A stretch of 64,000 bases of DNA from an uncultured Chloroflexia bacterium (GTDB lineage: Bacteria > Chloroflexota > Limnocylindria > Limnocylindrales > CSP1-4). Positions within the stretch are counted from its first letter, which is position 1; every line of letters starts with the position of its first letter. A program made the position numbers and the translations under genes. The stretch lies in contig CAWHDR010000001.1 in the NCBI GenBank assembly GCA_963828165.1, forward strand, positions 928,001 to 992,000, in the 5' to 3' direction. The notes below the pieces were generated by a model, which worked only from the letters and a program-made list of their open reading frames with translations, was not told the origin of the DNA and did not search any database. This document shows, one piece after another, positions 35,088 to 44,681 of this stretch.

Positions 35088-35175
35088 GGGCTCCTCGCTG
35101 GTCGTCCCGTCAAGTATCCATGTTCCGGGAAGTGCGACGCGGGGTTTCCGGTCGATGCCACGGTGTCAACCAGCG

Positions 35176-35628
35176 CTATTCGCGGGCGCGAAGGGCGGCC
35201 TCGATCTCGTCGAGGTGCTCACCACGGTGCTCGCCGCGGGCCGGGCTGATCGGGCTGTCCGGATCGCCCGGCCAGAGCCGATCCAGGGGCAGCCGAGCAG
35301 CGAGGGCGTCCGTCTCCTCCGCGGTCTGCAGGGCGAACCGCGCGGCCGTGCGCGGCTCGATCTGGTGGATCAGGGGGCGGGTCGAGTCGTTCAGCCAGTC
35401 ACCATCGGGCTCGTCATCACCTGACACCCACGGCTCGCCTCGATCGATCTTCGCCGCAAGCGTCTGGAAGCGGATATCCCAGTAGGCGAGGTGACCGAGC
35501 ACTCCCGCTACCGTCCAGAATTCGTTCACGGGCGCCGTAAGCGCGTCGTCGTCCAGCCCCTCGATGAGCGCGCGCAGTCGCGCTCGCTGACGCGCGTTGG
35601 CTTCGATGTACGGCCGATCTTCGCTCAT
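35176..35628 (-). CDS. DinB/MDMPI N-terminal-like protein
   Basis: WTVAGVLGHLAYWD, HRGEHLDEI. Confidence 0.8.
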   Translation of the reverse strand: MSEDRPYIEANARQRARLRALIEGLDDDALTAPVNEFWTVAGVLGHLAYWDIRFQTLAAKIDRGEPWVSGDDEPDGDWLNDSTRPLIHQIEPRTAARFALQTAEETDALAARLPLDRLWPGDPDSPISPARGEHRGEHLDEIEAALRARE

Positions 35629-35695
35629 GGTCTGACCATACAGCCCGCGCGCGGGGCGCGCCCAAGCTCGGGCGAGGCTGCTTCACACTGGGCGA

Positions 35696-37075
35696 ATGAC
35701 CCGGCGTCGCGTCCTGAGCGCGCTCCAGTTCTTTCCGCGCGGCGGGTCGTCGCATGTCGCCCGCGCACTCGCGCGGGAGCTTCCGGCGCATGGCTGGGAC
35801 GTCACGATCCTGTCCGGCTCGCGGCGGGACCTCGAGGGTGTCGGCGACGCGGCGCGCTTCTACGCGGGCCTCGACGTGTATCCGGTGTCATTCGACGAGG
35901 CGCTCGCTTCGCCCGACCCACTGGCTCCGCCCCCGGGTGTTGCGCCGATCCAGCCGTCGTACGAGGATCGCCCCGGCGCTCCGGACCGGGTGTTCGCCAT
36001 GCTCGACGACCATGCCTACGAGCGGCAAGTACGCGCTTGGGCGAGCGTCCTGACCACCGCCGGCGCCGCCCGATTCGACGCGCTGCACCTGCACCATCTG
36101 ACGCCGATCCACGAGGCGGCAGCGCGAGTCGCTCCAGCGGTCCCGATCGTCGGACATCTGCACGGCACCGAGCTGCTGATGCTCGAGGCGATCGCAGCCG
36201 GCCCGCCGCTCAGCTGGACGCACGCCGAGGCGTGGGTCGAGCGAATGCGCCGCTGGGCGCACGGTTGCGAGCGACTCGTGCTGGTCTCCCCATCGGAGAT
36301 CCCACGCGTTGAGCGGTTGCTCAGCCTGGGTACGGACCGGCTGGTGGTGCTGCCGAATGGGTTCGACCCGCGCGTCTTCGCGCGGCGCGATGTCGATCGC
36401 GCGTCGCTCTACCGCGATGCGCTCGTCGAAGCGCCGCGCGGCTGGTCTGCCGGCCAGGAAGCCGGCAGCGTCCGCTACCTGCCCGAGGACGTTTCGACCC
36501 TCGCTGACGGGGTGGTGGTGCTCACGGTCAGCCGCTTCACCGGGGTAAAGCGGCTCCCGCTACTCATCGAGGCATTCGCCCTGGCCCGCGATCGCGCGCG
36601 GACGCCCACCGGGCTGGTGATCGTCGGTGGCCACCCGGGCGAGTGGGAGGGAGAGCACCCTGCCGATACGATCGCCCGACTCGGAGTGCGCGGCGTCTTC
36701 CTGGCCGGCTGGCGCGACCACGCTGAGGTCTCCGAATTCCTGTCGGCCGCGGACCTGTTCGCCCTGGCCTCAGTTCGCGAACAGTTCGGCCTCGTGCTCG
36801 TCGAAGCGATGGCGTGCGAGATGGCGGTGATTGCCGTCGACCGCTTCGGGCCTGGCGAGATCATCGACGACGGCGAAACCGGCTGGCTGGTGGAGCCCGA
36901 CGATGTCGGGGGCCTCGCCGGGGCGCTGCTCCACGCAGTCGACGACCCCGCTGAGCGGGCGCGCCGCGGCGCCCATGCGCGCGCCGTCGCCATCGAGCGC
37001 TACGGCTGGCCAAAACTCGCCGAGCGCCTGGCCGGCGTGTTGGATGCCTCCGTGGTCGGGCCACCAAGGCGATAA
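35696..37075 (+). CDS. GT4 family glycosyltransferase
   Basis: HLHGTE, PNGFD, EQFGLVLVEAMA, GETGWLV. Confidence 0.9.
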   Translation: MTRRRVLSALQFFPRGGSSHVARALARELPAHGWDVTILSGSRRDLEGVGDAARFYAGLDVYPVSFDEALASPDPLAPPPGVAPIQPSYEDRPGAPDRVFAMLDDHAYERQVRAWASVLTTAGAARFDALHLHHLTPIHEAAARVAPAVPIVGHLHGTELLMLEAIAAGPPLSWTHAEAWVERMRRWAHGCERLVLVSPSEIPRVERLLSLGTDRLVVLPNGFDPRVFARRDVDRASLYRDALVEAPRGWSAGQEAGSVRYLPEDVSTLADGVVVLTVSRFTGVKRLPLLIEAFALARDRARTPTGLVIVGGHPGEWEGEHPADTIARLGVRGVFLAGWRDHAEVSEFLSAADLFALASVREQFGLVLVEAMACEMAVIAVDRFGPGEIIDDGETGWLVEPDDVGGLAGALLHAVDDPAERARRGAHARAVAIERYGWPKLAERLAGVLDASVVGPPRR

Positions 37076-37241
37076 CCGCGCTTTCTTGCGCAGTTGTAGG
37101 CGGACGACCTCGCAATCCCATTGGTCACGACGCGAGGGGTCGCGGCTTCGTCCCGCTTGGCGCCCACCGGGGGCCGTACCCGGGCAGCCAGTCTGCGTCG
37201 GCCCGTCGCTCGGCGCCGGGCTCGCGGTGACGAGACACAGC

Positions 37242-37269
37242 TCCGTTTGCGTCCGCCAATGACACCTGA
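37242..37269 (+). repeat. Array site R1
   Basis: TCCGTTTGCGT-CCGCCA-ATGACACCTGA. Confidence 0.85.
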
Positions 37270-37339
37270 GACCGCTGCGCCTTCCCCGCGCATTCGTGCC
37301 TCGCTACGACTTAGTCGGCCCGCCGCCGTTCACCGCCTT

Positions 37340-37714
37340 CTAATTCCTGACCGTGTAGACGGTGTGATTGGCGATCCGATTCGCGAGGACGCGGTCGAGC
37401 ACGTCCGCTCGCGGCAGTTCTACGCGCTGATCGACGCTGTCGGAGCTCCAGGTGGCAGTCAACTCCAGCACGCCAGTCAGCTGGCTGAACAACGTCGATA
37501 GGTCGGCATGCAGGCTCGATCGATGCTCCTTGGGAAGCTTCCAACCGGATGGGCGATCCCATTCGCGGACCATCTCGCACCCGTGGAGAGACAACGTCGG
37601 CTCCTCGTCATCCCGGTCGATTTCCCAGTCGAGGGAGACGGGCGCGCGGTCCCAGCCGATGAGGTTCGCTCGATCCGACGGAGTCATCGGGCGCACGACG
37701 TAGACCATGCACAT
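37340..37714 (-). CDS. Cassette ORF 1, hypothetical
   Basis: 124 aa; TACCCT 6 nt before ATG. Confidence 0.65.
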   Translation of the reverse strand: MCMVYVVRPMTPSDRANLIGWDRAPVSLDWEIDRDDEEPTLSLHGCEMVREWDRPSGWKLPKEHRSSLHADLSTLFSQLTGVLELTATWSSDSVDQRVELPRADVLDRVLANRIANHTVYTVRN

Positions 37715-37773
37715 GCCGCGAGGGTAGCAGTCGGCCCGCTGTTGGGCCCTCCCGTCGTCACAGCTCCCCGTGG

Positions 37774-37801
37774 TCGCAATGCGTCCGCCAATGACACTAG
37801 G
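37774..37801 (+). repeat. Array site R2
   Basis: TCGCAATGCGT-CCGCCA-ATGACACTAGG; contains the stop of ORF 2. Confidence 0.85.
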
Positions 37802-38402
37802 GCGATAAATCCTCGCACTGAGTCAGAGTCTTCCCCGGCTTCACGAATTGACAAAGCGCGTCGTAGGAATCGTCGGAGCCTTTGAGCACGAGATACTTCG
37901 GGTAGGCGCCGAGGTGGTCGCCCTCGCCTTCATTGGTTTCCATCAGCAGAGCCGTTCGAGCTGGCACGCCGGGGATCCGGTATACCGTCCTCTTCTCGCC
38001 TTCATAGGACGTCGTGCCAGATGCCTCGAGACCATTGGGCCAATCGAAGCTTCGACCAATGGACACCAGGTATGGGTCCCCATTGACGGTTGCCGTGGCG
38101 GCCTCGAGAACCTCTGTCACGACCACGTTGCCTGGAAGCTGAACGACGTCCACTCGCGCGCTGACATGCGACCGAGTAGGGTCGGCAACCGCGACGCTCG
38201 GGGCACCGGCCTCGGGGCGGTCTGCCGGCCGGGACAGGCCGAGGACGGCGACGGCGGCCACGACTCCGAGCGCCACTATCGGAACCCAGCGCGGAAGGAG
38301 CGGACCCGGCTCATCCTCGGACGTCGCGACGACGGCGAAGGTCTCGGGCAGCTGACGATGTCGGTCGACATCCGCGAAGACGGTCGCCTGTTGATCACGC
38401 AT
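37797..38402 (-). CDS. Cassette ORF 2, single-TM anchored hypothetical protein
   Basis: 201 aa; WVPIVALGVVAAVAVLGL; TAGCCT 8 nt before ATG. Confidence 0.65.
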   Translation of the reverse strand: MRDQQATVFADVDRHRQLPETFAVVATSEDEPGPLLPRWVPIVALGVVAAVAVLGLSRPADRPEAGAPSVAVADPTRSHVSARVDVVQLPGNVVVTEVLEAATATVNGDPYLVSIGRSFDWPNGLEASGTTSYEGEKRTVYRIPGVPARTALLMETNEGEGDHLGAYPKYLVLKGSDDSYDALCQFVKPGKTLTQCEDLSP

Positions 38403-38429
38403 GTGCTCTCAGGCTACTCGACCTTGGTG

Positions 38430-38457
38430 TGGCTTAGCGTCCGCCAAAGTCACCCGA
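38430..38457 (+). repeat. Array site R3
   Basis: TGGCTTAGCGT-CCGCCA-AAGTCACCCGA; contains the stop of ORF 3. Confidence 0.85.
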
Positions 38458-38833
38458 ATGGAGTAGCGCCAGGATCTGAGCCTGCGCGCATCGGCGAAAC
38501 GGGAAGCGAACTGGGGTCCGAAGCGTGAAGTCCATCCTCGGCAGAGAACATGACCAGTGCGACGACGAGGGCGTCACCGCTGGGCGATCGCAGCCGGAAT
38601 CCCTTTCGGTCATACGTCAGCGCCTTCAGAGCGTCCTCGCCCCCGATCGAGCGGACCTCGGCCGGTGAGACTTCGTCGATGGACTCGATGTCGAGCCCAT
38701 CCGGCATGTGAAGGAAGCTCACGCCCTTGAAGAGAACGTCGATCCGTGTCGGATTGTCGTTGTCCCGCTGGCTCCTCAGCAGCAGTTGGGCGTGAGTAAC
38801 CGCGTACTCCCATATGACGTAGCGGCGCGTCAC
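38450..38833 (-). CDS. Cassette ORF 3, hypothetical (start uncertain)
   Basis: WEYAVTHAQLLLRS...RIDVLFKGV motif. Confidence 0.65.
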   Translation of the reverse strand: MTRRYVIWEYAVTHAQLLLRSQRDNDNPTRIDVLFKGVSFLHMPDGLDIESIDEVSPAEVRSIGGEDALKALTYDRKGFRLRSPSGDALVVALVMFSAEDGLHASDPSSLPVSPMRAGSDPGATPFG

Positions 38834-38929
38834 CGCGCAAACGAAAACGGGGTGCCAAGGACCGCACCCCCGAGGACGAAGGTGACCCTCCCAAACGGCC
38901 GCATTGCGCGATGTTACAGGCCACCCCGG

Positions 38930-38957
38930 TCGCAAAGCGTTCGCGAATGTCACTCGA
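38930..38957 (+). repeat. Array site R4
   Basis: TCGCAAAGCGT-TCGCGA-ATGTCACTCGA; contains the stop of ORF 4. Confidence 0.85.
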
Positions 38958-39660
38958 CCGGGGGCTTGAAACCGTAGCGTGCCTGCTCGTCCGCGATCGT
39001 GTAGCTGAGATCGGGCCGGAAATCCCGAGTTGTAATCAGCAATCCCTCTAATCCATAGAAGCTCTCGTCGAATGGGCGCAGGCCGATCGCCCGGCAGTAT
39101 CGATCGACCAGTGCCGGCGTCAGTCGGTCCGCCACGCGGCGGGCCCCGTAGGAACGGAGGTCCTCGTAGGGCTGCGGACGCCCGGTCGCGACGAAGACCA
39201 AACGGCCACCATCATCACGTCCCACATGAACGGTGCGTTCATGGTTGAGAAAATCAGTTGGGTGGTCGGCGATGAGCTGGAAGCGAAGGGTCTCATGGCT
39301 CGGTACCGGCCACCACACGATGTAGACGGCGCGGCATCTCATCATCTCCGCGATCACACCGACCGGAGCTTCGTCAGCACCGGTGTGCTGGTTGCTGAAG
39401 TAGGCCGTCCAATCGGACCGCGTGCCAAGGAGTAGCTCGCGATTGCCTAGGCTCATCGGTTCCAGGGCAGATAGGACCTCGCGAAGCGGCCCAACCACGC
39501 CCAGCTCGACCGGCTGCAGATCGAGTCCTCGACGCCATGCGGCCAGGACTTCGGCAACTTCGCCGATCGCGGCGTCGAAGAACGCGTAGGCGCCCGTGAT
39601 GGGCCACAGCTCCGCTCCGAGAAGCGGTTTTGGCTCGGGCGCCGCGGGTTCGTCGTGCAT
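38950..39660 (-). CDS. Cassette ORF 4, hypothetical
   Basis: 236 aa; WTAYFSN...GRPQPYE...RRVADRLT...FDESFY; TACGCT 7 nt before ATG. Confidence 0.7.
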   Translation of the reverse strand: MHDEPAAPEPKPLLGAELWPITGAYAFFDAAIGEVAEVLAAWRRGLDLQPVELGVVGPLREVLSALEPMSLGNRELLLGTRSDWTAYFSNQHTGADEAPVGVIAEMMRCRAVYIVWWPVPSHETLRFQLIADHPTDFLNHERTVHVGRDDGGRLVFVATGRPQPYEDLRSYGARRVADRLTPALVDRYCRAIGLRPFDESFYGLEGLLITTRDFRPDLSYTIADEQARYGFKPPVE

Positions 39661-39697
39661 GCGAACAAGCGTATCGGGCGGGACCAGGCCGCTCGGC

Positions 39698-39725
39698 TCA
39701 GTCTGTGTCCGCCAATGTCACCCGG
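39698..39725 (+). repeat. Array site R5
   Basis: TCAGTCTGTGT-CCGCCA-ATGTCACCCGG; contains the stop of ORF 5. Confidence 0.88.
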
Positions 39726-40053
39726 TCGACTGCCGAGATTGGCGGGCGGCGCGATCCGCTGCGTAGCGCCTCGCCACGGCCTTCAGCTCGTCAATCGAGG
39801 CATCGCTTCGAGCACTCCACGCGTCCCATTCGCCGTGGGGGTAGCTCAGCAATTGGAAGAGCGCGGCCTGGACGACGTGGTATGTCTGGTCGGTCCCAAT
39901 CCCCTCCGGCCACACATCGAGGACCGCCCGAACCGTGTCTCGCTCGTAACCGAAGAGGGTCGGGAATTCCCAGTCGGGATAGAGCGGGCCATCGACCGTG
40001 GCAAGAAGGACGCTATGGATGACATCGCGATCGCGTTCCGTCAACGCCGCCAT
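39718..40053 (-). CDS. Cassette ORF 5, hypothetical
   Basis: 111 aa; YPDWEFPTLFG...LLSYPHG; TACACT 6 nt before ATG. Confidence 0.7.
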   Translation of the reverse strand: MAALTERDRDVIHSVLLATVDGPLYPDWEFPTLFGYERDTVRAVLDVWPEGIGTDQTYHVVQAALFQLLSYPHGEWDAWSARSDASIDELKAVARRYAADRAARQSRQSTG

Positions 40054-40077
40054 TGCCGGAGTGTAGGCATCGCGAGG

Positions 40078-40105
40078 TCTCACAGTGTTTGGGAATGTCA
40101 CCCGA
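40078..40105 (+). repeat. Array site R6
   Basis: TCTCACAGTGT-TTGGGA-ATGTCACCCGA. Confidence 0.85.
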
Positions 40106-40139
40106 AAGCGGGGGCACTCCGACCTGTCATGCTCCACGT

Positions 40140-40439
40140 GTGTCCACGGAGTCGGCCGAGAAGACCGAGCAGTTTGAGTACGAGGTCGCGGAGGCTCTTG
40201 CGCTCCCGCAGCACGGCATCGGCGCGATTGGCTGGATCCGTGTCGGGACAGTTCGAATTGGCGACCAAGTAGCCGTCGACGATGACGCAGCTGAGCCATA
40301 CACGGTTCGCGGAGTAGGAATTCTCGACGGGCTGGGACCGAAAGCGGGTAGCGCCAACATCGAGCTTCTCCTCGACGACTACGGCACGAAACGATTGGCG
40401 CCAGGCGTTCCAATTCGCAGGTGGAGAGACTTCACCTAG
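40140..40439 (+). CDS. Cassette ORF 6, small beta-barrel (EF-Tu domain II-like, inferred)
   Basis: 99 aa FEYEVAEAL...GIGAIGWIRVGTVRIGDQV...; CATGCT 6 nt before GTG. Confidence 0.55.
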   Translation: MSTESAEKTEQFEYEVAEALALPQHGIGAIGWIRVGTVRIGDQVAVDDDAAEPYTVRGVGILDGLGPKAGSANIELLLDDYGTKRLAPGVPIRRWRDFT

Positions 40440-40455
40440 GGCGAGGGCAACCGCA

Positions 40456-40483
40456 CCGTTACGTATCCGCCAATGTCACTCGA
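40456..40483 (+). repeat. Array site R7
   Basis: CCGTTACGTAT-CCGCCA-ATGTCACTCGA; contains the stop of ORF 7. Confidence 0.85.
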
Positions 40484-41087
40484 GCGTGAGCTTTCCGTGT
40501 GCTCCCGTCAGGGAGATCGACCACGCCCCGGATGAACCCGTCACGGCGATCGGTAGGTCGTGGTCGCCGAGCCAGTCGGCGAGACGTTCTTGGTCTGCCG
40601 CCACCGACAGAAGCGTCAGACTGACCGAACCATCCCGATGGCGAACGGCGGCGGCTCCCGGCACCTGCATGCCGTCTCCCCATTGGATGAAGAACGGAAG
40701 CCCGGGCTCGCGCACGGCGATTTCGACACCTACGCTGCGCCAGGCGATGAGGGCACCCCGGGGATCGACTCGCGAACCAGGAAGGACGGGCTGGCCGAGC
40801 CTTCGCCCGACAGCGTCGATCGAATCCGTTCGAACAGCCCAGCCGAGCGGGCTTCCCGGAAGCGCGGAGGCGACCCATCGCCCGAAGGCGCTCCGACTCG
40901 CCGCCTCGCGGTCGGCCACCGCGACGAGCTCGAGATAGGACTCGCCGAGCGGGACGATCCAATTGGCCGTACCCCACGCTGGATGCCGCCCACCCTCAAC
41001 GGAGACAAGCCCGTACCGAGCCTTCAGCCTGGCCACCTCGGCCGCGAGGTCACGGACGGGCAGGATCACGTGATCGATCGCTAGCAC
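40476..41087 (-). CDS. Cassette ORF 7, VOC/Glyoxalase_3 family
   Basis: IDHVILPVRDL, GGRHPAWGTAN, YLELV, LPFFIQW. Confidence 0.85.
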   Translation of the reverse strand: MLAIDHVILPVRDLAAEVARLKARYGLVSVEGGRHPAWGTANWIVPLGESYLELVAVADREAASRSAFGRWVASALPGSPLGWAVRTDSIDAVGRRLGQPVLPGSRVDPRGALIAWRSVGVEIAVREPGLPFFIQWGDGMQVPGAAAVRHRDGSVSLTLLSVAADQERLADWLGDHDLPIAVTGSSGAWSISLTGAHGKLTLE

Positions 41088-41114
41088 AGCTCACTCAAGG
41101 TGGTACCCGCTGGG

Positions 41115-41173
41115 CTCACAGGTGTCCGGGAAGGTTTCTCAGATCGGCCACGTATGGGGGCTATGTCACCTGT
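41115..41173 (+). repeat. Degenerate array sites R8a/R8b
   Basis: GTGT-CCGGGA-AGGTTTC (41122-41138) and GTAT-GGGGGCT-ATGTCACCTGT (41152-41173); the latter contains the stop of ORF 8. Confidence 0.6.
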
Positions 41174-41567
41174 CAGGTTCGGCCGCGTCGAACGGTGGCA
41201 GGGCGTGCTGCCCGAACGATTCCTGCCACCCAACATAGGCGACCGACAACCCGTCACTTACGTCGGTCAGGTCCGTCGTGGCACCGGTCAACTCGTTGGT
41301 GCCGACCACTTTGATCCAAGGCAATCGCTCGATAGCCCACATCGTATTGCTCACCGCCTCGTTCGTCACGGCGACGACGAGCTCTCGCACGAACTGCTGC
41401 CCTTCGGGCGAAAGGGCCTGAAAGGCAACCCCGACATCCCGTGCGCCAGGAAACCGCATCCGCCCCTCGAACGTGGCGAACCAGTTACTGATCGTGTAGT
41501 CGAACCCGGTCTCGACGATCTCCCGACCGAGGGCAGCGAGCGCGTCCATTTCGTCATCGATGGTCAC
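41166..41567 (-). CDS. Cassette ORF 8, hypothetical
   Basis: 133 aa; DLTDVSDGLSVAYVGWQESF; CATACT 6 nt before GTG. Confidence 0.65.
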   Translation of the reverse strand: MTIDDEMDALAALGREIVETGFDYTISNWFATFEGRMRFPGARDVGVAFQALSPEGQQFVRELVVAVTNEAVSNTMWAIERLPWIKVVGTNELTGATTDLTDVSDGLSVAYVGWQESFGQHALPPFDAAEPDR

Positions 41568-41590
41568 GGTGAGAGTATGCGGCCGGGACC

Positions 41591-41640
41591 CATGGGATCG
41601 GGTCGAAGCGAGGGAGCCCTTGCGACTGTCCACAAGCGTC
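41591..41640 (+). repeat. 50-bp exact direct repeat (second copy at 41917-41966)
   Basis: CATGGGATCGGGTCGAAGCGAGGGAGCCCTTGCGACTGTCCACAAGCGTC; both copies end at the TC of a site's left arm. Confidence 0.95.
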
Positions 41641-41913
41641 TCACAGTGTTCGGGAATGTCACCCGAAAGCGGGGGCACTCCGACCTGTCGGGCTCCACGT
41701 GTGTCCACGGAGTCGGCCGAGAAGACCGAGCAGTTTGAGTACGAGGTCGCGGAGGTTCTTGCGCTCCCGCAGCACGGCATCGGCGCGATTGGCTGGATCC
41801 GTGTCGGGACAGTTCGAATTGGCGACCAAGTAGCCGTCGGCGATGACGCAGCTGAGCCATCCACGGTTCGCGGAGTAGGAATTCTCGACGGGCTGGGACC
41901 GAAGGCGGGTAGC
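41638..41913 (+). pseudogene. Truncated duplicate of site R6 plus cassette ORF 6 (includes site R9, 41639-41666)
   Basis: 276 bp matching 40077-40352 with 7 substitutions; R9 = TCTCACAGTGT-TCGGGA-ATGTCACCCGA. Confidence 0.9.
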
Positions 41914-41964
41914 CCGCATGGGATCGGGTCGAAGCGAGGGAGCCCTTGCGACTGTCCACAAGCG

Positions 41965-41992
41965 TCGCTTGGTGTCCGCCAATGTCACCCGA
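41965..41992 (+). repeat. Array site R10
   Basis: TCGCTTGGTGT-CCGCCA-ATGTCACCCGA. Confidence 0.88.
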
Positions 41993-42036
41993 AGCAAAGA
42001 GCGTTGGTAGCGGCCGGCAGGGGCGCCAGTCCGTCC

Positions 42037-42459
42037 CTAGACGGCCTCAAACATGTGTGCTAGGGACGTAGCGATCAAGGACAGCGAGCCGGGGTCCACG
42101 ATTACCTGTGCCGTCACCTTCCAGGCCGGTTCGTGCCATTCGTGGACAGGATCGACGCCCAGCACCACCTGGATGGCGACGTGTCCGATGCGGTCGTGCC
42201 AACATGTCAACTGGAAGTTGCCGTCGCCGTAGGAGTCCCAGCCTCGTGGGCCTTCCCAGCCTTTCCAATCCCGGGCGAGGCCCTGGAAAAAGTCCACCAG
42301 CTCACCGCCCTGGATGTAGTGACCGGGAAACACCGGTTCTGACGCTGTGATTCCGGGGAGGTCGAGAGAAACGACGAACGACTGCCCAACCGGGTCGTCG
42401 GTTTGGAAGGTCAGCGTGGCTCCCGGCTGGCCGATGGTCACCGAGGGCGTGGGTTCCAT
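42037..42459 (-). CDS. Cassette ORF 10, DUF6228-like hypothetical protein
   Basis: LVDFFQGLARDWKGWEGPRGWDS...HDRIGHV...W; TACAGT 6 nt before ATG. Confidence 0.7.
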   Translation of the reverse strand: MEPTPSVTIGQPGATLTFQTDDPVGQSFVVSLDLPGITASEPVFPGHYIQGGELVDFFQGLARDWKGWEGPRGWDSYGDGNFQLTCWHDRIGHVAIQVVLGVDPVHEWHEPAWKVTAQVIVDPGSLSLIATSLAHMFEAV

Positions 42460-42590
42460 CCGACGACTGTAGCAACCACAGGCCGCATTTGGCAGGCCGG
42501 GCAGCACTCGAGCTGCATGTCCGCAAGGCTCAGGTCGGGCTGCGGACGATCTGAATGACCGCTGGACTCGGCAGTGACGCCGCGTGATCC

Positions 42591-42618
42591 TCCCAAAGTG
42601 TCCGGGAATGTCACCTGA
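42591..42618 (+). repeat. Array site R11
   Basis: TCCCAAAGTGT-CCGGGA-ATGTCACCTGA. Confidence 0.85.
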
Positions 42619-42771
42619 CGAAGTGGAGAGGTGGTGTGTACGCGTGCCCGCTCGCACCAGACATCGCGGTTCGGTCGTTCCATGTGCGGGCTGTTCGAGT
42701 CATGCTCAACGGCAACGCTCCGAGATTGGAGGACCGGGATGCTCCCGCCGGCGAGAAGACCGTCTGACAGG

Positions 42772-43182
42772 ATGCCTCGGCAGGCCGCGCAGGGTGGCAG
42801 GTCGCCGTGGCTGCTGGCTGTGCTCGTGTTCCTCTCCGTCAGCCTGGTGACCCTCGGCCCGACGAGCTGGCCTCATGTGGTCGACGCGGATTGTCCGGCG
42901 CCAGAGTTCATGCTCGATTCCGACGGCGATTGCATGGCCCGAGGCACGCTCATCGTCATGACCGGCGCGCCTTCCGACGGCAAAACTCGCGCGGACCTCG
43001 AACGCGCCATTGAACCGCTCGGCGGACGGATCGAGACGGACGTCGACGCTCTGAGGATCTACGGAGTTCTGTTTCCGTCAGCGGACACCCTTGCAGAGCT
43101 CGACGAACTGGAGGCCGCCCTCGAAGCGCTCGGATTCTGGGTCAGCCGCTCATACACCGGGGAACTGTTCGCCACGACCTGA
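42772..43182 (+). CDS. Cassette ORF 11, secreted/membrane-anchored hypothetical protein (start uncertain)
   Basis: WLLAVLVFLSVSLVTL followed by a small alpha/beta domain. Confidence 0.55.
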   Translation: MPRQAAQGGRSPWLLAVLVFLSVSLVTLGPTSWPHVVDADCPAPEFMLDSDGDCMARGTLIVMTGAPSDGKTRADLERAIEPLGGRIETDVDALRIYGVLFPSADTLAELDELEAALEALGFWVSRSYTGELFATT

Positions 43183-43290
43183 GCCACGCCCCTGCCGGCG
43201 TGCGGAATCCGCGCCGCGGCGCGCCCGGCTGGTCCGATCGGAGCCCGAGTCATCGGTGGTCGTCACCTTCGGGTGTAGAGCACGCAAGCG

Positions 43291-43318
43291 TCAGTCACTG
43301 TGCGTCGATGTCACCAGG
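43291..43318 (+). repeat. Degenerate array site R12
   Basis: TCAGTCACTGT-GCGTCG-ATGTCACCAGG; ORF 12 stops in its left arm. Confidence 0.7.
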
Positions 43319-43732
43319 GCCATCCCAGGCCGCCATGACCTGTTCTTGATCCGTCTTGCTTTCGCCGAGGTGCGTGACGCCTCCGGCAGTCACCTCGTGG
43401 CGGGAGCTCAGGTCCGACCACGGCTCGGCGTAGGCGAATCCCTCGAGTACATCCAGAACACCGTCCTGAACGAACAGCACGAACCCGGCCCCATGCTCCA
43501 AGCCTTCGATGGTTGCGGTGACGTCCCCAAGGTCCATCCTCCCGGGCTTCACGGGGGCGGGCGCAGCATCCGTCGCGACATCGAGCTCCGTGATGAAGCC
43601 CACGCCTGTCATCTGGCGCGACGCCACCTGGCAACGCTCGACTTGGCGGCGAAGCGCATTCATGACGGGGTGGTCCGGCGCGAGGATGGCCGCGATCACG
43701 TCCCGCTCCAACAAGCTCAGCGCGTCGGCCAT
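43295..43732 (-). CDS. Cassette ORF 12, hypothetical
   Basis: RQMTGVGFITEL...GLEHGAGFVLFVQDGVLDVLEGFAYAEPW; TAACGT 7 nt before ATG. Confidence 0.72.
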   Translation of the reverse strand: MADALSLLERDVIAAILAPDHPVMNALRRQVERCQVASRQMTGVGFITELDVATDAAPAPVKPGRMDLGDVTATIEGLEHGAGFVLFVQDGVLDVLEGFAYAEPWSDLSSRHEVTAGGVTHLGESKTDQEQVMAAWDGPGDIDAQ

Positions 43733-43758
43733 GCCGGGCACGTTACAACGCGGTTGTG

Positions 43759-43786
43759 TCCCTCAGTGTCCGCCAATGTCACCCGG
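43759..43786 (+). repeat. Array site R13
   Basis: TCCCTCAGTGT-CCGCCA-ATGTCACCCGG; ORF 13 stops in its left arm. Confidence 0.88.
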
Positions 43787-44317
43787 TCCGGCCACGATAC
43801 GGAAAACCATCCATTGGTCGTGGAAACCCGCGCAGAGCGGGACATCCGGGCTCCACTTGGCTGATGCGCGACCGAAGGCGGCGATGGTACGGGCTAGCAG
43901 GTGGAGATTGCGCGCCTCGTCCGCAGCGTTACCGCGCCACGTGGTTGCTAACAGGGCAGCAAGTTCAGGCACAGCAGGCCCAGAACGGACCTGTGACGGA
44001 TCGAAGTCCGATGCCCAACTGTCGTCACCAACGGACTCAGACTCATAAGAGAGACACTCGAAGAACGCACTACTCCATCCGTTATCGACGTCAAACTCCC
44101 AATAGACCGCGGCCGTGGTCTTGTCCAGTCGGTTGCCCAAGGCGTCGATGCTGTCCGCAAGGGCAGAGGTATACGAACTGAGATCGACCGAGGACACGGC
44201 CGCGGCCGCCTCAGGATCAAGGCGACGGCAGTCTTCGGCGAATGTGTACTCGAGACCATCCCAATCGCGGCTGGCGATCCAGGCTCTCATCGCTTCCACG
44301 CCCGCATCGATATCCAC
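43763..44317 (-). CDS. Cassette ORF 13, hypothetical acidic protein
   Basis: AVYWEFDVDNGWSSAFFEC...DDSWASD...CAGFHDQ; TACCCT 6 nt before GTG. Confidence 0.7.
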   Translation of the reverse strand: MDIDAGVEAMRAWIASRDWDGLEYTFAEDCRRLDPEAAAAVSSVDLSSYTSALADSIDALGNRLDKTTAAVYWEFDVDNGWSSAFFECLSYESESVGDDSWASDFDPSQVRSGPAVPELAALLATTWRGNAADEARNLHLLARTIAAFGRASAKWSPDVPLCAGFHDQWMVFRIVAGPGDIGGH

Positions 44318-44342
44318 GCTCGGAGGGTACGGCACCGCCGGG

Positions 44343-44681
44343 TCACATGGCGTGATCTCCCCCGAGGTCTTCCGCCTCTTCCAGTACCAGCAACGTCGAC
44401 AGACCTGGTGCGATCTCGCGCAGGTTTCGGCCCGCGGCGCGCATCGCGTCCGAAGCGAGACCCGCGTCCATCGCCGCGCGATCGTCGAATTCCATCGCCG
44501 TGACCAACACAAGGTCGGTCTCGCCTCCCAGGGCCTCGGAAACGCGCTGCACCTTGGTCGAGCGCAAGCCCGGCGTCTCGGCAACGAGAGGCAGATGTTC
44601 CGTCGCGTAGCGACGCTCGAACTCGGCGAGCGCGTCGGGGCCGCCCTCAGGGCGGCGATACAGGGCGAGTAGCGTGGTCAT
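44343..44681 (-). CDS. EthD family reductase
   Basis: LLALYRRP...FERRYATEHLPLVAETPGL...MEFDDRAAM. Confidence 0.85.
   Translation of the reverse strand: MTTLLALYRRPEGGPDALAEFERRYATEHLPLVAETPGLRSTKVQRVSEALGGETDLVLVTAMEFDDRAAMDAGLASDAMRAAGRNLREIAPGLSTLLVLEEAEDLGGDHAM

Follow-up and report, generated by a model that had tools for sequence, protein, structure and literature searches.

Integrons are the textbook device for gene capture and stockpiling, resting on one tyrosine recombinase family and on the folded attC site. The staphylococcal cassette chromosome (SCC) elements use Ccr large serine recombinases and insert at the 3' end of a conserved gene, rlmH. Stockpiles of immunity genes have been described as heterogeneous polyimmunity loci (Zhang et al. 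2012, PMC3482391) and as the recombinase-associated acquired interbacterial defence (rAID-1) arrays of Bacteroidales (Ross et al. 2019, bioRxiv 10.1101/471110). Here, an array of small genes separated by short direct repeats was analyzed in a stretch of 64,000 nucleotides (the window) from the genome of an uncultured Chloroflexota bacterium (genome G000, array W), together with four further arrays of the same genome and with arrays of related genomes. It is probable (at roughly 0.6) that array W is one of five arrays of an integron-like cassette platform, which is driven by a large serine recombinase (SR) and stockpiles orphan immunity-type genes.

The closest systems in function are the polyimmunity loci and rAID-1, in logic the integron, and in enzyme the phage-type and SCC-type large serine recombinases. 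The polyimmunity loci are tandem, toxin-free sets of unrelated and strain-variable immunity genes, sometimes located beside recombinases, a pattern that the arrays studied here would probably fit; however, in the available parts of their description they are defined by gene content, polycistronic expression is suggested, the neighbors are of the XerC/D type, and extended loci are listed only in proteobacteria, bacteroidetes, firmicutes, and actinobacteria. An array of orphan immunity-type genes, a repeated intergenic sequence (called "reminiscent of integrons" in the rAID-1 preprint), and a skewed G+C content are common to rAID-1 and to the present arrays, as is a recombinase at one end. According to the main text of that preprint, the recombinase of rAID-1 is an XerD-family tyrosine recombinase, whereas SR and a rolling-circle replication gene (Rep) are found here, in metagenome-assembled genomes (MAGs) of the Chloroflexota type, and no array is headed by a tyrosine recombinase. 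The site sequences are considered unrelated in a comparison confined to that main text, the rAID-1 motifs being given in its supplementary figures. In the parts of both papers that were available, no cassette boundary or mechanism is defined, and for polyimmunity loci no site or SR either. Among the titles and abstracts found in the literature, supplementary material being outside this scope, no SR-linked array of single-gene cassettes was described; in the accessible text of a 2024 integron preprint (10.1101/2024.07.02.601686), serine recombinases are mentioned only in the methods. An earlier reading of the window from its letters alone (the sequence-only reading) had proposed a site-specific capture and stockpiling system; SR, Rep, a promoter-like element at each site, and the immunity cargo are additions to it, and analogous stockpiles (rAID-1 and polyimmunity loci) had already been described.

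Sites and cassettes of the five arrays

The sequence-only reading had counted 13 same-orientation repeats of 28 bp, spaced 326-768 nt apart, with no full site elsewhere in the window. A 15-nt core pattern (at most one mismatch) matched 12 times in the window, always on the plus strand and inside 37251-43782, with no copy in the rest of the 64 kb, compared with an average of 1.38 matches and at most 4 in 100 dinucleotide-preserving shuffles; together with one degenerate, split copy at 41144-41173, the claimed 13 sites were recovered. The intervals between them (532, 656, 500, 768, 380, 378, 690, 493, 326, 626, 700, and 468 nt) reproduce the claimed range. Sites are direct and lie on the strand opposite to the genes, which, apart from that of cassette 11, occupy the minus strand, and the G+C content of array W (63-66%) is lower than that of its flanks (70-72%). 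The repeat itself is real; its length needed revision, the conserved block being about 30 nt long and followed by a -10-like hexamer. On the gene strand, this block reads TCNGGTGWCATTSSCGSACRCTTTGCGAC (consensus of 106 sites in the genus).

Genome G000 comprises 3.31 Mb in six contigs and is 87.7% complete. A position weight matrix (PWM) derived from the window sites gave 38 matches of at least 27 bits in the whole genome, all of which fell in five loci, the next best match scoring at most 18.5 bits. These loci are array W and arrays A (C1, 585.6-591.2 kb), B (C1, 1609.1-1611.6 kb), S (C1, 1778.7 kb), and D (C5, 13.4-20.8 kb). A strict 17-nt pattern matched 31 times, always inside the five arrays, so that the possibility of a dispersed motif can be set aside, and a relaxed version (at most two mismatches) gave 47 sites in the same loci, or about 48 with the degenerate site S8. 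Orientation is uniform within each array and opposite to the genes.

These properties separate the repeats from known classes, as the sequence-only reading had argued. Intervals of 326-768 nt that carry open reading frames (ORFs) do not correspond to the 25-50-nt non-coding spacers of clustered regularly interspaced short palindromic repeats (CRISPR), and a block of about 30 nt with weak dyad symmetry (best score 0.39 over the 106 sites) does not correspond to attC. No Rfam family was matched in the array region, in which only two chance matches below the gathering score were obtained. An identity with integrons was rejected, as no IntI, no attC features, and no shared promoter were present; the three PF00589 matches in the genome (C5:119473, C5:160719, and C1:454536) lie neither in the window nor beside any array.

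The sites are also joined to the ends of the genes on both sides. The stop codon of seven of the 12 minus-strand window ORFs is the TGA inside the GGTGAC of the site, one further stop (TAG) abuts the core, two lie in the right half after the core, and two come earlier. Past the block, a TAnnnT hexamer often follows at 12 nt (at +37 in 29 of the 106 sites and at +35 to +37 in 36), and at the junctions inspected by eye the start codons came 5-8 nt after this -10-like hexamer. Such short spacing is the layout of leaderless transcripts, and the site-borne hexamer would probably act as a promoter.

Cassettes were found to behave as modules bounded by the sites. Cassette 11 of array W recurs in arrays B and D with 85-92% nucleotide identity over 720-770 nt and with unrelated neighbors, i.e., the same ORF and site do occur in other arrays, a check that the sequence-only reading had suggested. 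In the three-way alignment, similarity starts at the upstream site and ends inside the downstream one, the left part of the site staying with the preceding cassette and the right part with the following cassette, which would place the exchange point between about +12 and +18 in the block. Among 21 array regions, 10 inter-array matches of at least 150 nt were detected; in nine, both partners have a site no more than 9 nt from the start of the match, and in six the match also ends 6-42 nt beyond the point where the next site starts, so breakpoints do fall in the sites. Of the others, three are confined to a common 5' stretch of about 150 nt, and one is internal. In addition, two cassettes that are adjacent in relative G116 occur in reversed order in G066.

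Gain and loss of whole arrays were evident from the comparison with related genomes. Positions 35134-44361 of the window are absent in four of five relatives, in which gaps of 15-84 bp are left (G042, G021, G071, and G045), and the closest relative (G066, with a 98% identical YmdB) has 2.5 kb of unrelated DNA instead. Insertion between ordinary genes was therefore correctly recognized in that the segment is missing in relatives, but the block includes the genes of a GT4 glycosyltransferase and a DinB_2 protein as well. GT4 occurs at 79% identity elsewhere in five relatives, without shared neighbors; it is not a stable flank, because it belongs to the segment missing in relatives and is carried by them at other positions. 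Array D and the preceding 3.2 kb form a 12.8-kb block of SR, Rep, and array between php and ymdB, which are adjacent without this island in 14 of 14 relatives, including G066. The locus of array A (lysA) is empty in two of five relatives (G021 and G071), and in G066 it holds at least eight sites over two contig ends without any cassette of array A; a 73% match links one of its cassettes to a cassette of array B, and another match links one segment to array W. At the locus of array S, 12 sites are present in G137. Content is thus not fixed, even at one locus in the closest relative. No site at up to two mismatches was found in the empty loci of arrays W and A, no clear attB could be derived from the insertion junctions of W or D, and when the ORFs surrounding 11 array regions were compared all against all, no common neighbor beyond orthologous flanks emerged.

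Several details were noted at the downstream ends of arrays. About 350 nt that separate the final site of array D from the resumption of homology with relatives (C5:22640-22985) contain three short palindromes of the type ATATCGCC...GGCGATAT. A ymdB-like ORF at C5:22602-23801 is open for 399 aa up to the last site of array D, of which only the first ~258 aa are conserved in relatives, and insertion of the island appears to have altered or extended its 3' end. An S4-domain (hslR-like) gene (C1:591244-591630) directly follows the last site of array A, and its homologue lies at a different locus in three relatives.

A serine recombinase, a Rep gene, and shortened head sites

The only Resolvase-domain gene of G000 (C5, 10.2-11.6 kb) lies ahead of array D and is co-oriented with the cassettes; a divergent gene for a rolling-circle Rep (PF23343) comes next. 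Intact orthologues of this SR have 465-468 aa and score above the Pfam cut-offs for Resolvase, Recombinase, and Zn_ribbon_recom, the three domains that a large serine recombinase of about 450-550 aa is expected to combine, and the N-terminal YARIS motif was invariant in six of six aligned sequences. The closest solved relatives are phage-type integrases, i.e., 9iu2 (E 3.4e-14) and TP901-1. Of 80 loci drawn from genome collections, about 50 had the SR and Rep genes together as a module. When the comparison was restricted to loci whose SR shares 56% identity or more with that of G000 and whose sequence extends about 2 kb or more past the module, same-orientation sites followed SR-Rep in about 11 of 16 evaluable cases (G000, L064, L066, L068, L070, L072, L073, L074, L083, L131, and L134); the outcome was ambiguous in L069, L071, and L116, and several other contigs stop directly after Rep. 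Arrays were also present at L129 (SR identity 46%) and L090 (54%, with a variant core). In the array-bearing loci of four relatives inspected for this purpose, no site was detected upstream of SR. The islands of SR, Rep, and array occur in differing chromosomal contexts, with a php-like match beside SR in one of 80 loci. The SR gene of locus L060 (in genome G599) is in pieces.

A closer link between SR and the arrays is provided by the site itself. In all 11 aligned loci, an extended -10 element (TGnTAATGT) precedes SR, the start codon following after 7-8 nt, and the right half of the site lies 12 nt upstream of this element. In four lineages this right half is the variant found in the array sites of the same lineage (CTTTGCGAC in G000, CTGACTGA in genus g7, CCGTGCCA in G599, and CTTGCGGA in G271), and this co-variation ties SR to the array sites.

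Array heads carry a distinct, shortened form of the site. The left and right motifs, 8 nt apart in the long form, are separated by only 3 nt at the heads of arrays D and S of G000, in G111, and upstream of four SR genes of genus g7, and by 1 nt at the heads of arrays W and B. The shortening (by 5 nt in seven head sites and by 7 nt in two) affects one side of the site only. The short form also marks arrays without SR (S, G111, B, and W), while the head of array A is unclear. At array W, the head match is degenerate (~10 of 13 positions of the right-half consensus), and the EthD gene of relatives ends just short of it.

Comparison with characterized large serine recombinases helps to place these sites. 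SCC composite islands share tandem elements, short direct repeats, and recombinase-less elements that rely on Ccr in trans, but their units are multi-gene, range from kilobases to tens of kilobases, and are confined to the single locus rlmH, whereas up to 20 single-gene units with their own putative promoters are seen here. The phage-type large serine integrases (LI/A118, Bxb1, and phiC31) have the same domain set as SR, and according to the available text on their sites, the motif of the zinc-ribbon domain lies 5 bp nearer the center in attB than in attP, the minimal attB being about 10 bp shorter (Rutherford et al. 2013, PMC3783163). A similar 5-bp motif shift distinguishes the short and long sites here; in contrast to the sites of these integrases, only one half is shifted, the sites are shorter, and many long sites stand in tandem, which canonical unidirectional enzymes would not yield. 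By analogy, short head sites and long internal sites could fit the offset logic of attB and attP on one side of the site.

The strict pattern occurred in 52 of 131 genomes of the genus (the reversed pattern, used as control, had one match), and arrays are present in G111, G116, G137, and G140. In a class-wide draw, the pattern was detected in many genera of the family (52 of 137 genomes) and in 0/16, 6/92, 13/153 (family f4, with one match in an unpublished genome, G415), and 0/2 genomes of other families, all as single matches, with none in 401 genomes for the control. An SR and divergent Rep module (44-52% identity) was also observed in cultured Actinomycetota (L093-L109 and L133; Kocuria, Nocardioides, Microbacterium, and Pengzhenrongella records), which suggests that the module by itself constitutes a small integrative replicon. 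In IMG/VR, 13 SR relatives at 32-40% identity were found on small contigs, without a Rep homologue and without arrays.

Several observations weigh against an SR-driven platform. First, SR is often missing. No recombinase adjoins four of the five G000 arrays or the inspected arrays of G111, G116, G137, and G140; a Resolvase-domain search of G137, G140, and G066 (77%, 91%, and 71% complete) gave no match; and an SR relative (E <=1e-30) was detected in only 19 of 251 family genomes, a floor given the stricter first look applied, against sites in 52 of 137. Second, SR may lack an array. L078 and L096 have ample sequence downstream of SR and no sites, and the Actinomycetota isolates with SR-Rep show no arrays with the tested site pattern, while a de novo 10-mer search downstream of SR homologues was too noisy in these G+C-rich loci to exclude arrays of other sequence. 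Third, SR of G000 has a 1-nt deletion in the zinc-ribbon region relative to an 86% identical orthologue and is split into two frames, which reflects either a real frameshift or an assembly error. Fourth, characterized serine-integrase sites measure 40-50 bp, more than the block conserved here (about 30 nt), whose dyad is weak. To recombine hybrid sites, canonical serine integrases need a directionality factor; a head site regenerated at each insertion therefore requires equivalent right halves, which is assumed here. Finally, only six of 115 cassette ORFs belong to families named as immunity proteins, and most have no family.

Alternatively, the ~45-nt junction might be chiefly the common promoter/operator module of a polyimmunity locus, whose cassettes are shuffled by ordinary homologous recombination between these short repeats, and SR-Rep might be an unrelated integrative replicon of small size, parasitic on the arrays in that it attaches at the array site. 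In favor of this, the -10-like hexamer stands at a fixed distance and is followed by a start codon after 5-8 nt, a promoter geometry that the SR gene shares; SR-Rep exists without arrays in the Actinomycetota isolates and at L078 and L096, most arrays are without SR, and the SR-Rep unit is itself cassette-like in its bounds. Such an arrangement is nevertheless unlikely: homologous recombination alone could not give unrelated genes the same 30-nt block, SR occupies the head of the array, not its interior, in each of the five evaluable loci, the head form shorter by 5 nt is distinct even in arrays without SR, and the sites are confined to arrays.

Arrays without SR would be accounted for if a tyrosine recombinase (XerC/XerD or another) moved the cassettes in trans, as proposed for rAID-1, pdif, and Xer-exploiting elements. 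A pair of tyrosine recombinases 41-49 kb apart, read as XerC/XerD, is present together with others in every genome examined, two lie 3.6 and 7.8 kb from the array of G140, and in the available text polyimmunity loci and rAID-1 are linked to XerC/D-family genes. The pdif and Xer-exploiting elements also have short (~28-nt) sites that flank small gene modules, with no dedicated recombinase adjacent. Their sites, however, alternate in orientation and resemble dif, whereas those found here are all direct, as the sequence-only reading had pointed out when it set pdif aside. The only ATAA-N6-TTAT sequence of the genome, a candidate dif near a contig end (C1:2888998-2889011, ~2.889 Mb), shares just five of 11 XerD-arm positions with the site, and a derivation of the sites from dif was rejected on account of this weak similarity. 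The 11-6-11 layout of inverted arms is absent from the sites, no tyrosine recombinase adjoins any of the five G000 arrays, and movement by such an enzyme would leave the SR linkage and the co-varying site upstream of SR unexplained. Overall, this alternative appears quite improbable.

Even less probable is a central role of Rep, in which an HUH-type rolling-circle enzyme would nick one site, terminate at the next, and free single-stranded cassette circles, leaving SR to integrate only the master element. The PF23343 Rep is kept beside SR in about 50 of 80 related loci, and about one third of the sites could fold into a 5-bp stem with a 7-nt loop. Nevertheless, no conserved hairpin or nick motif was found in the set of 106 sites, Rep is absent from arrays without SR, and proximity is its sole tie to the sites.

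Features of array W

The sites, cassettes, and flanking segment of array W are listed in Table 1. One small unrelated ORF per interval, as claimed by the sequence-only reading, holds for most cassettes; a 276-nt segment is common to two intervals (40077-40352 in cassette 6 and 41638-41913 in cassette 9, 97% identical), and the chimeric structure of cassette 9 suggests homologous exchange between cassettes. Cassette 12 has a homologue in array A of the same genome (67% amino acid identity, 73% nucleotide identity for the whole cassette). Pfam families were assigned to only two window cassettes (DUF6228 and Glyoxalase_3), and in a protein atlas the best scores of cassettes 12 and 4 were 0.86 and 0.84, DUF6984 and DUF6928 being leads only. 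Site S8 looks split, with a motif part at 41122-41135 and the core at 41163-41169 separated by about 30 nt of unrelated sequence. Beyond the array, the glycosyltransferase gene at 35696-37075 has a weak "GT4-conflict" Pfam match (E 5e-9), and close copies of both the DinB_2 and GT4 genes were found in relatives at other loci.

Table 1. Coordinates in the window of the sites and cassettes of array W and of the adjoining segment.
Feature	Position	Strand	Description
Rest of segment absent in relatives	35134-37239	both	DinB_2 gene 35176-35628 (-), GT4 glycosyltransferase 35696-37075 (+)
Site S1, array tail	37240-37269	+	right half departs from consensus
Cassette 1 ORF, last of array	37340-37714	-	124 aa, no Pfam family
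Site S2	37772-37801	+	core-pattern match
Cassette 2 ORF	37797-38402	-	201 aa, hydrophobic segment; 5' 150 nt common to cassettes of G116 and G066
Site S3	38428-38457	+	core-pattern match
Cassette 3 ORF	38450-38833	-	~127 aa; homologue (80% aa) in array of relative G111
Site S4	38928-38957	+	core-pattern match
Cassette 4 ORF	38950-39660	-	236 aa, no Pfam family
Site S5	39696-39725	+	core-pattern match
Cassette 5 ORF	39718-40053	-	111 aa; -10-like TACACT 6 nt ahead of ATG
Site S6	40076-40105	+	core-pattern match
Cassette 6	40098-40475	- (coding strand uncertain)	125-aa open frame without good start, or + ORF 40089-40436; no Pfam family
Site S7	40454-40483	+	core-pattern match
Cassette 7 ORF	40476-41087	-	Glyoxalase_3, E 2.5e-37
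Site S8, degenerate	41144-41173	+	PWM score 9.4; other motif half ~30 nt off at 41122-41135
Cassette 8 ORF	41166-41567	-	133 aa, no Pfam family
Site S9	41637-41666	+	core-pattern match
Cassette 9, chimeric or partial copy	41659-41961	-	3' 276 nt 97% identical to cassette 6; first 72 nt 90% identical to start of cassette 8
Site S10	41963-41992	+	core-pattern match
Cassette 10 ORF	42037-42459	-	DUF6228, E 2e-21
Site S11	42589-42618	+	core-pattern match
Cassette 11, reverse-oriented ORF	42631-43182	+	183-aa open frame, hydrophobic segment
Site S12, divergent copy	43289-43318	+	core-pattern match
Cassette 12 ORF	43295-43741	-	148 aa, no Pfam family
Site S13	43757-43786	+	core-pattern match
Cassette 13 ORF	43763-44335	-	~185-190 aa, no Pfam family; reads through S13, stop in right half of site
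Array head, shortened site	44342-44359	-	overlaps EthD stop; then 12 nt, TACCCT -10-like hexamer, GTG start of cassette 13

Cargo and the proposed cassette platform

The cargo was surveyed in 115 cassette ORFs from 16 arrays of 11 genomes, the ORFs having been chosen automatically, so that some picks may be wrong. They matched 24 Pfam families, including Barstar (2), SMI1_KNR4 (2), Imm1 (1), Imm26 (1), DUF6228 (3), DUF7674 (3), and DUF4304 (2), besides DUF4265, DUF1963, DUF4279, and others. Within G000, Imm26 and DUF7674 were assigned to array A, DUF4279 to array D, DUF6228 and Glyoxalase_3 to array W, and an AadA_C/NTP_transf_2 nucleotidyltransferase to array B. The last is a non-immunity cargo, encoded by a 314-aa ORF with both domains (L004:7161-8102, reverse) that resembles aminoglycoside nucleotidyltransferases. 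Two matches to a transposase family ("rve"), available as counts per family only, suggest insertion sequences in the long (1.2-2.2 kb) cassettes of the G599 array (L060). No toxin family was among the 24, and neither an RHS repeat nor a barnase-type RNase was found in the 87.7% complete G000 genome. Immunity to polymorphic toxins would be the only recurrent functional theme, as judged from family assignments, and variable content is shared with polyimmunity loci; the few named immunity families and the recurrent DUFs would fit such a locus in part, most cassettes having no family. Arrays of such genes, each under a putative promoter of its own, would serve as a stockpile against the toxins of other bacteria.

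The preferred explanation remains the SR-driven platform. In the proposed organization, a cassette would consist of the right half-site with its -10 box (for a leaderless-type transcript), one small gene, and the next site's left half, from which the stop codon is often taken, and a complete platform of a shortened head site, the SR gene, the divergent Rep gene, and then the array. A cassette circle would bring one long site, and SR would pair this attP-like site with the short attB-like site at the head. If only the left halves differ, the head would end up with a short site once more and the new cassette would be followed by a long one, so that insertion could be repeated at the head, as at the attI of integrons, and cassettes would pile up there. 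Recombination between the head and an internal site would in turn free the head-proximal cassettes as a circle with a long site, and the linked Rep may replicate excised circles. The SR-Rep unit, bounded like a cassette, could be an autonomous founder of new arrays at the 3' ends of host genes and be lost later, which would explain arrays without SR. Such arrays, e.g., array W, would be the counterpart of the integron clusters of attC sites lacking integrase (CALINs), either served in trans or relics. As regards the capture and stockpiling proposed by the sequence-only reading, turnover, site-bounded modules, and a restricted motif have now been found, with the recombination step itself still a prediction.

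The resemblance to integrons is considerable. Both have single-gene cassettes in one orientation, a site at the 3' end of the ORF that is split at the cassette boundary, a distinct head site comparable to attI, arrays without recombinase, and full turnover of content between related genomes. Unlike integrons, these arrays are associated with an SR instead of the tyrosine recombinase IntI, have sites of about 30 nt instead of attC hairpins of 55-141 nt, and carry a -10-like box in each cassette instead of depending on the common promoter Pc. Moreover, the recombinase is co-oriented with the cassettes, the Rep gene lies between the recombinase and the cassettes, and several arrays are present per genome at the 3' ends of housekeeping genes. 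A wider proposal, which we advance only tentatively, is that the arrays represent an independent class of gene capture (a "serine integron"), in which SR inserts single-gene circles at a short attB-like head that is regenerated since one half-site differs, Rep may replicate the circles, and the system seeds arrays at the 3' ends of housekeeping genes, which then decay to SR-less stockpiles of immunity genes; its range would comprise Limnocylindria-type Chloroflexota and, according to MAG labels, some Dormibacterota and Actinomycetota.

If this is true, a second platform with the logic of the integron, built on an SR, plain 30-bp sites, and self-expressed cassettes, would point to more than one origin of gene stockpiling. 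It would also offer a mechanistic handle on the assembly of polyimmunity loci, a question standing since 2012, and on that of rAID-1, and an SR whose target is regenerated with each insertion would be of interest for serial DNA-integration tools. For these abundant uncultured soil and freshwater bacteria themselves, the cargo, most of which has no family, would then represent a catalogue of candidate immunity proteins.

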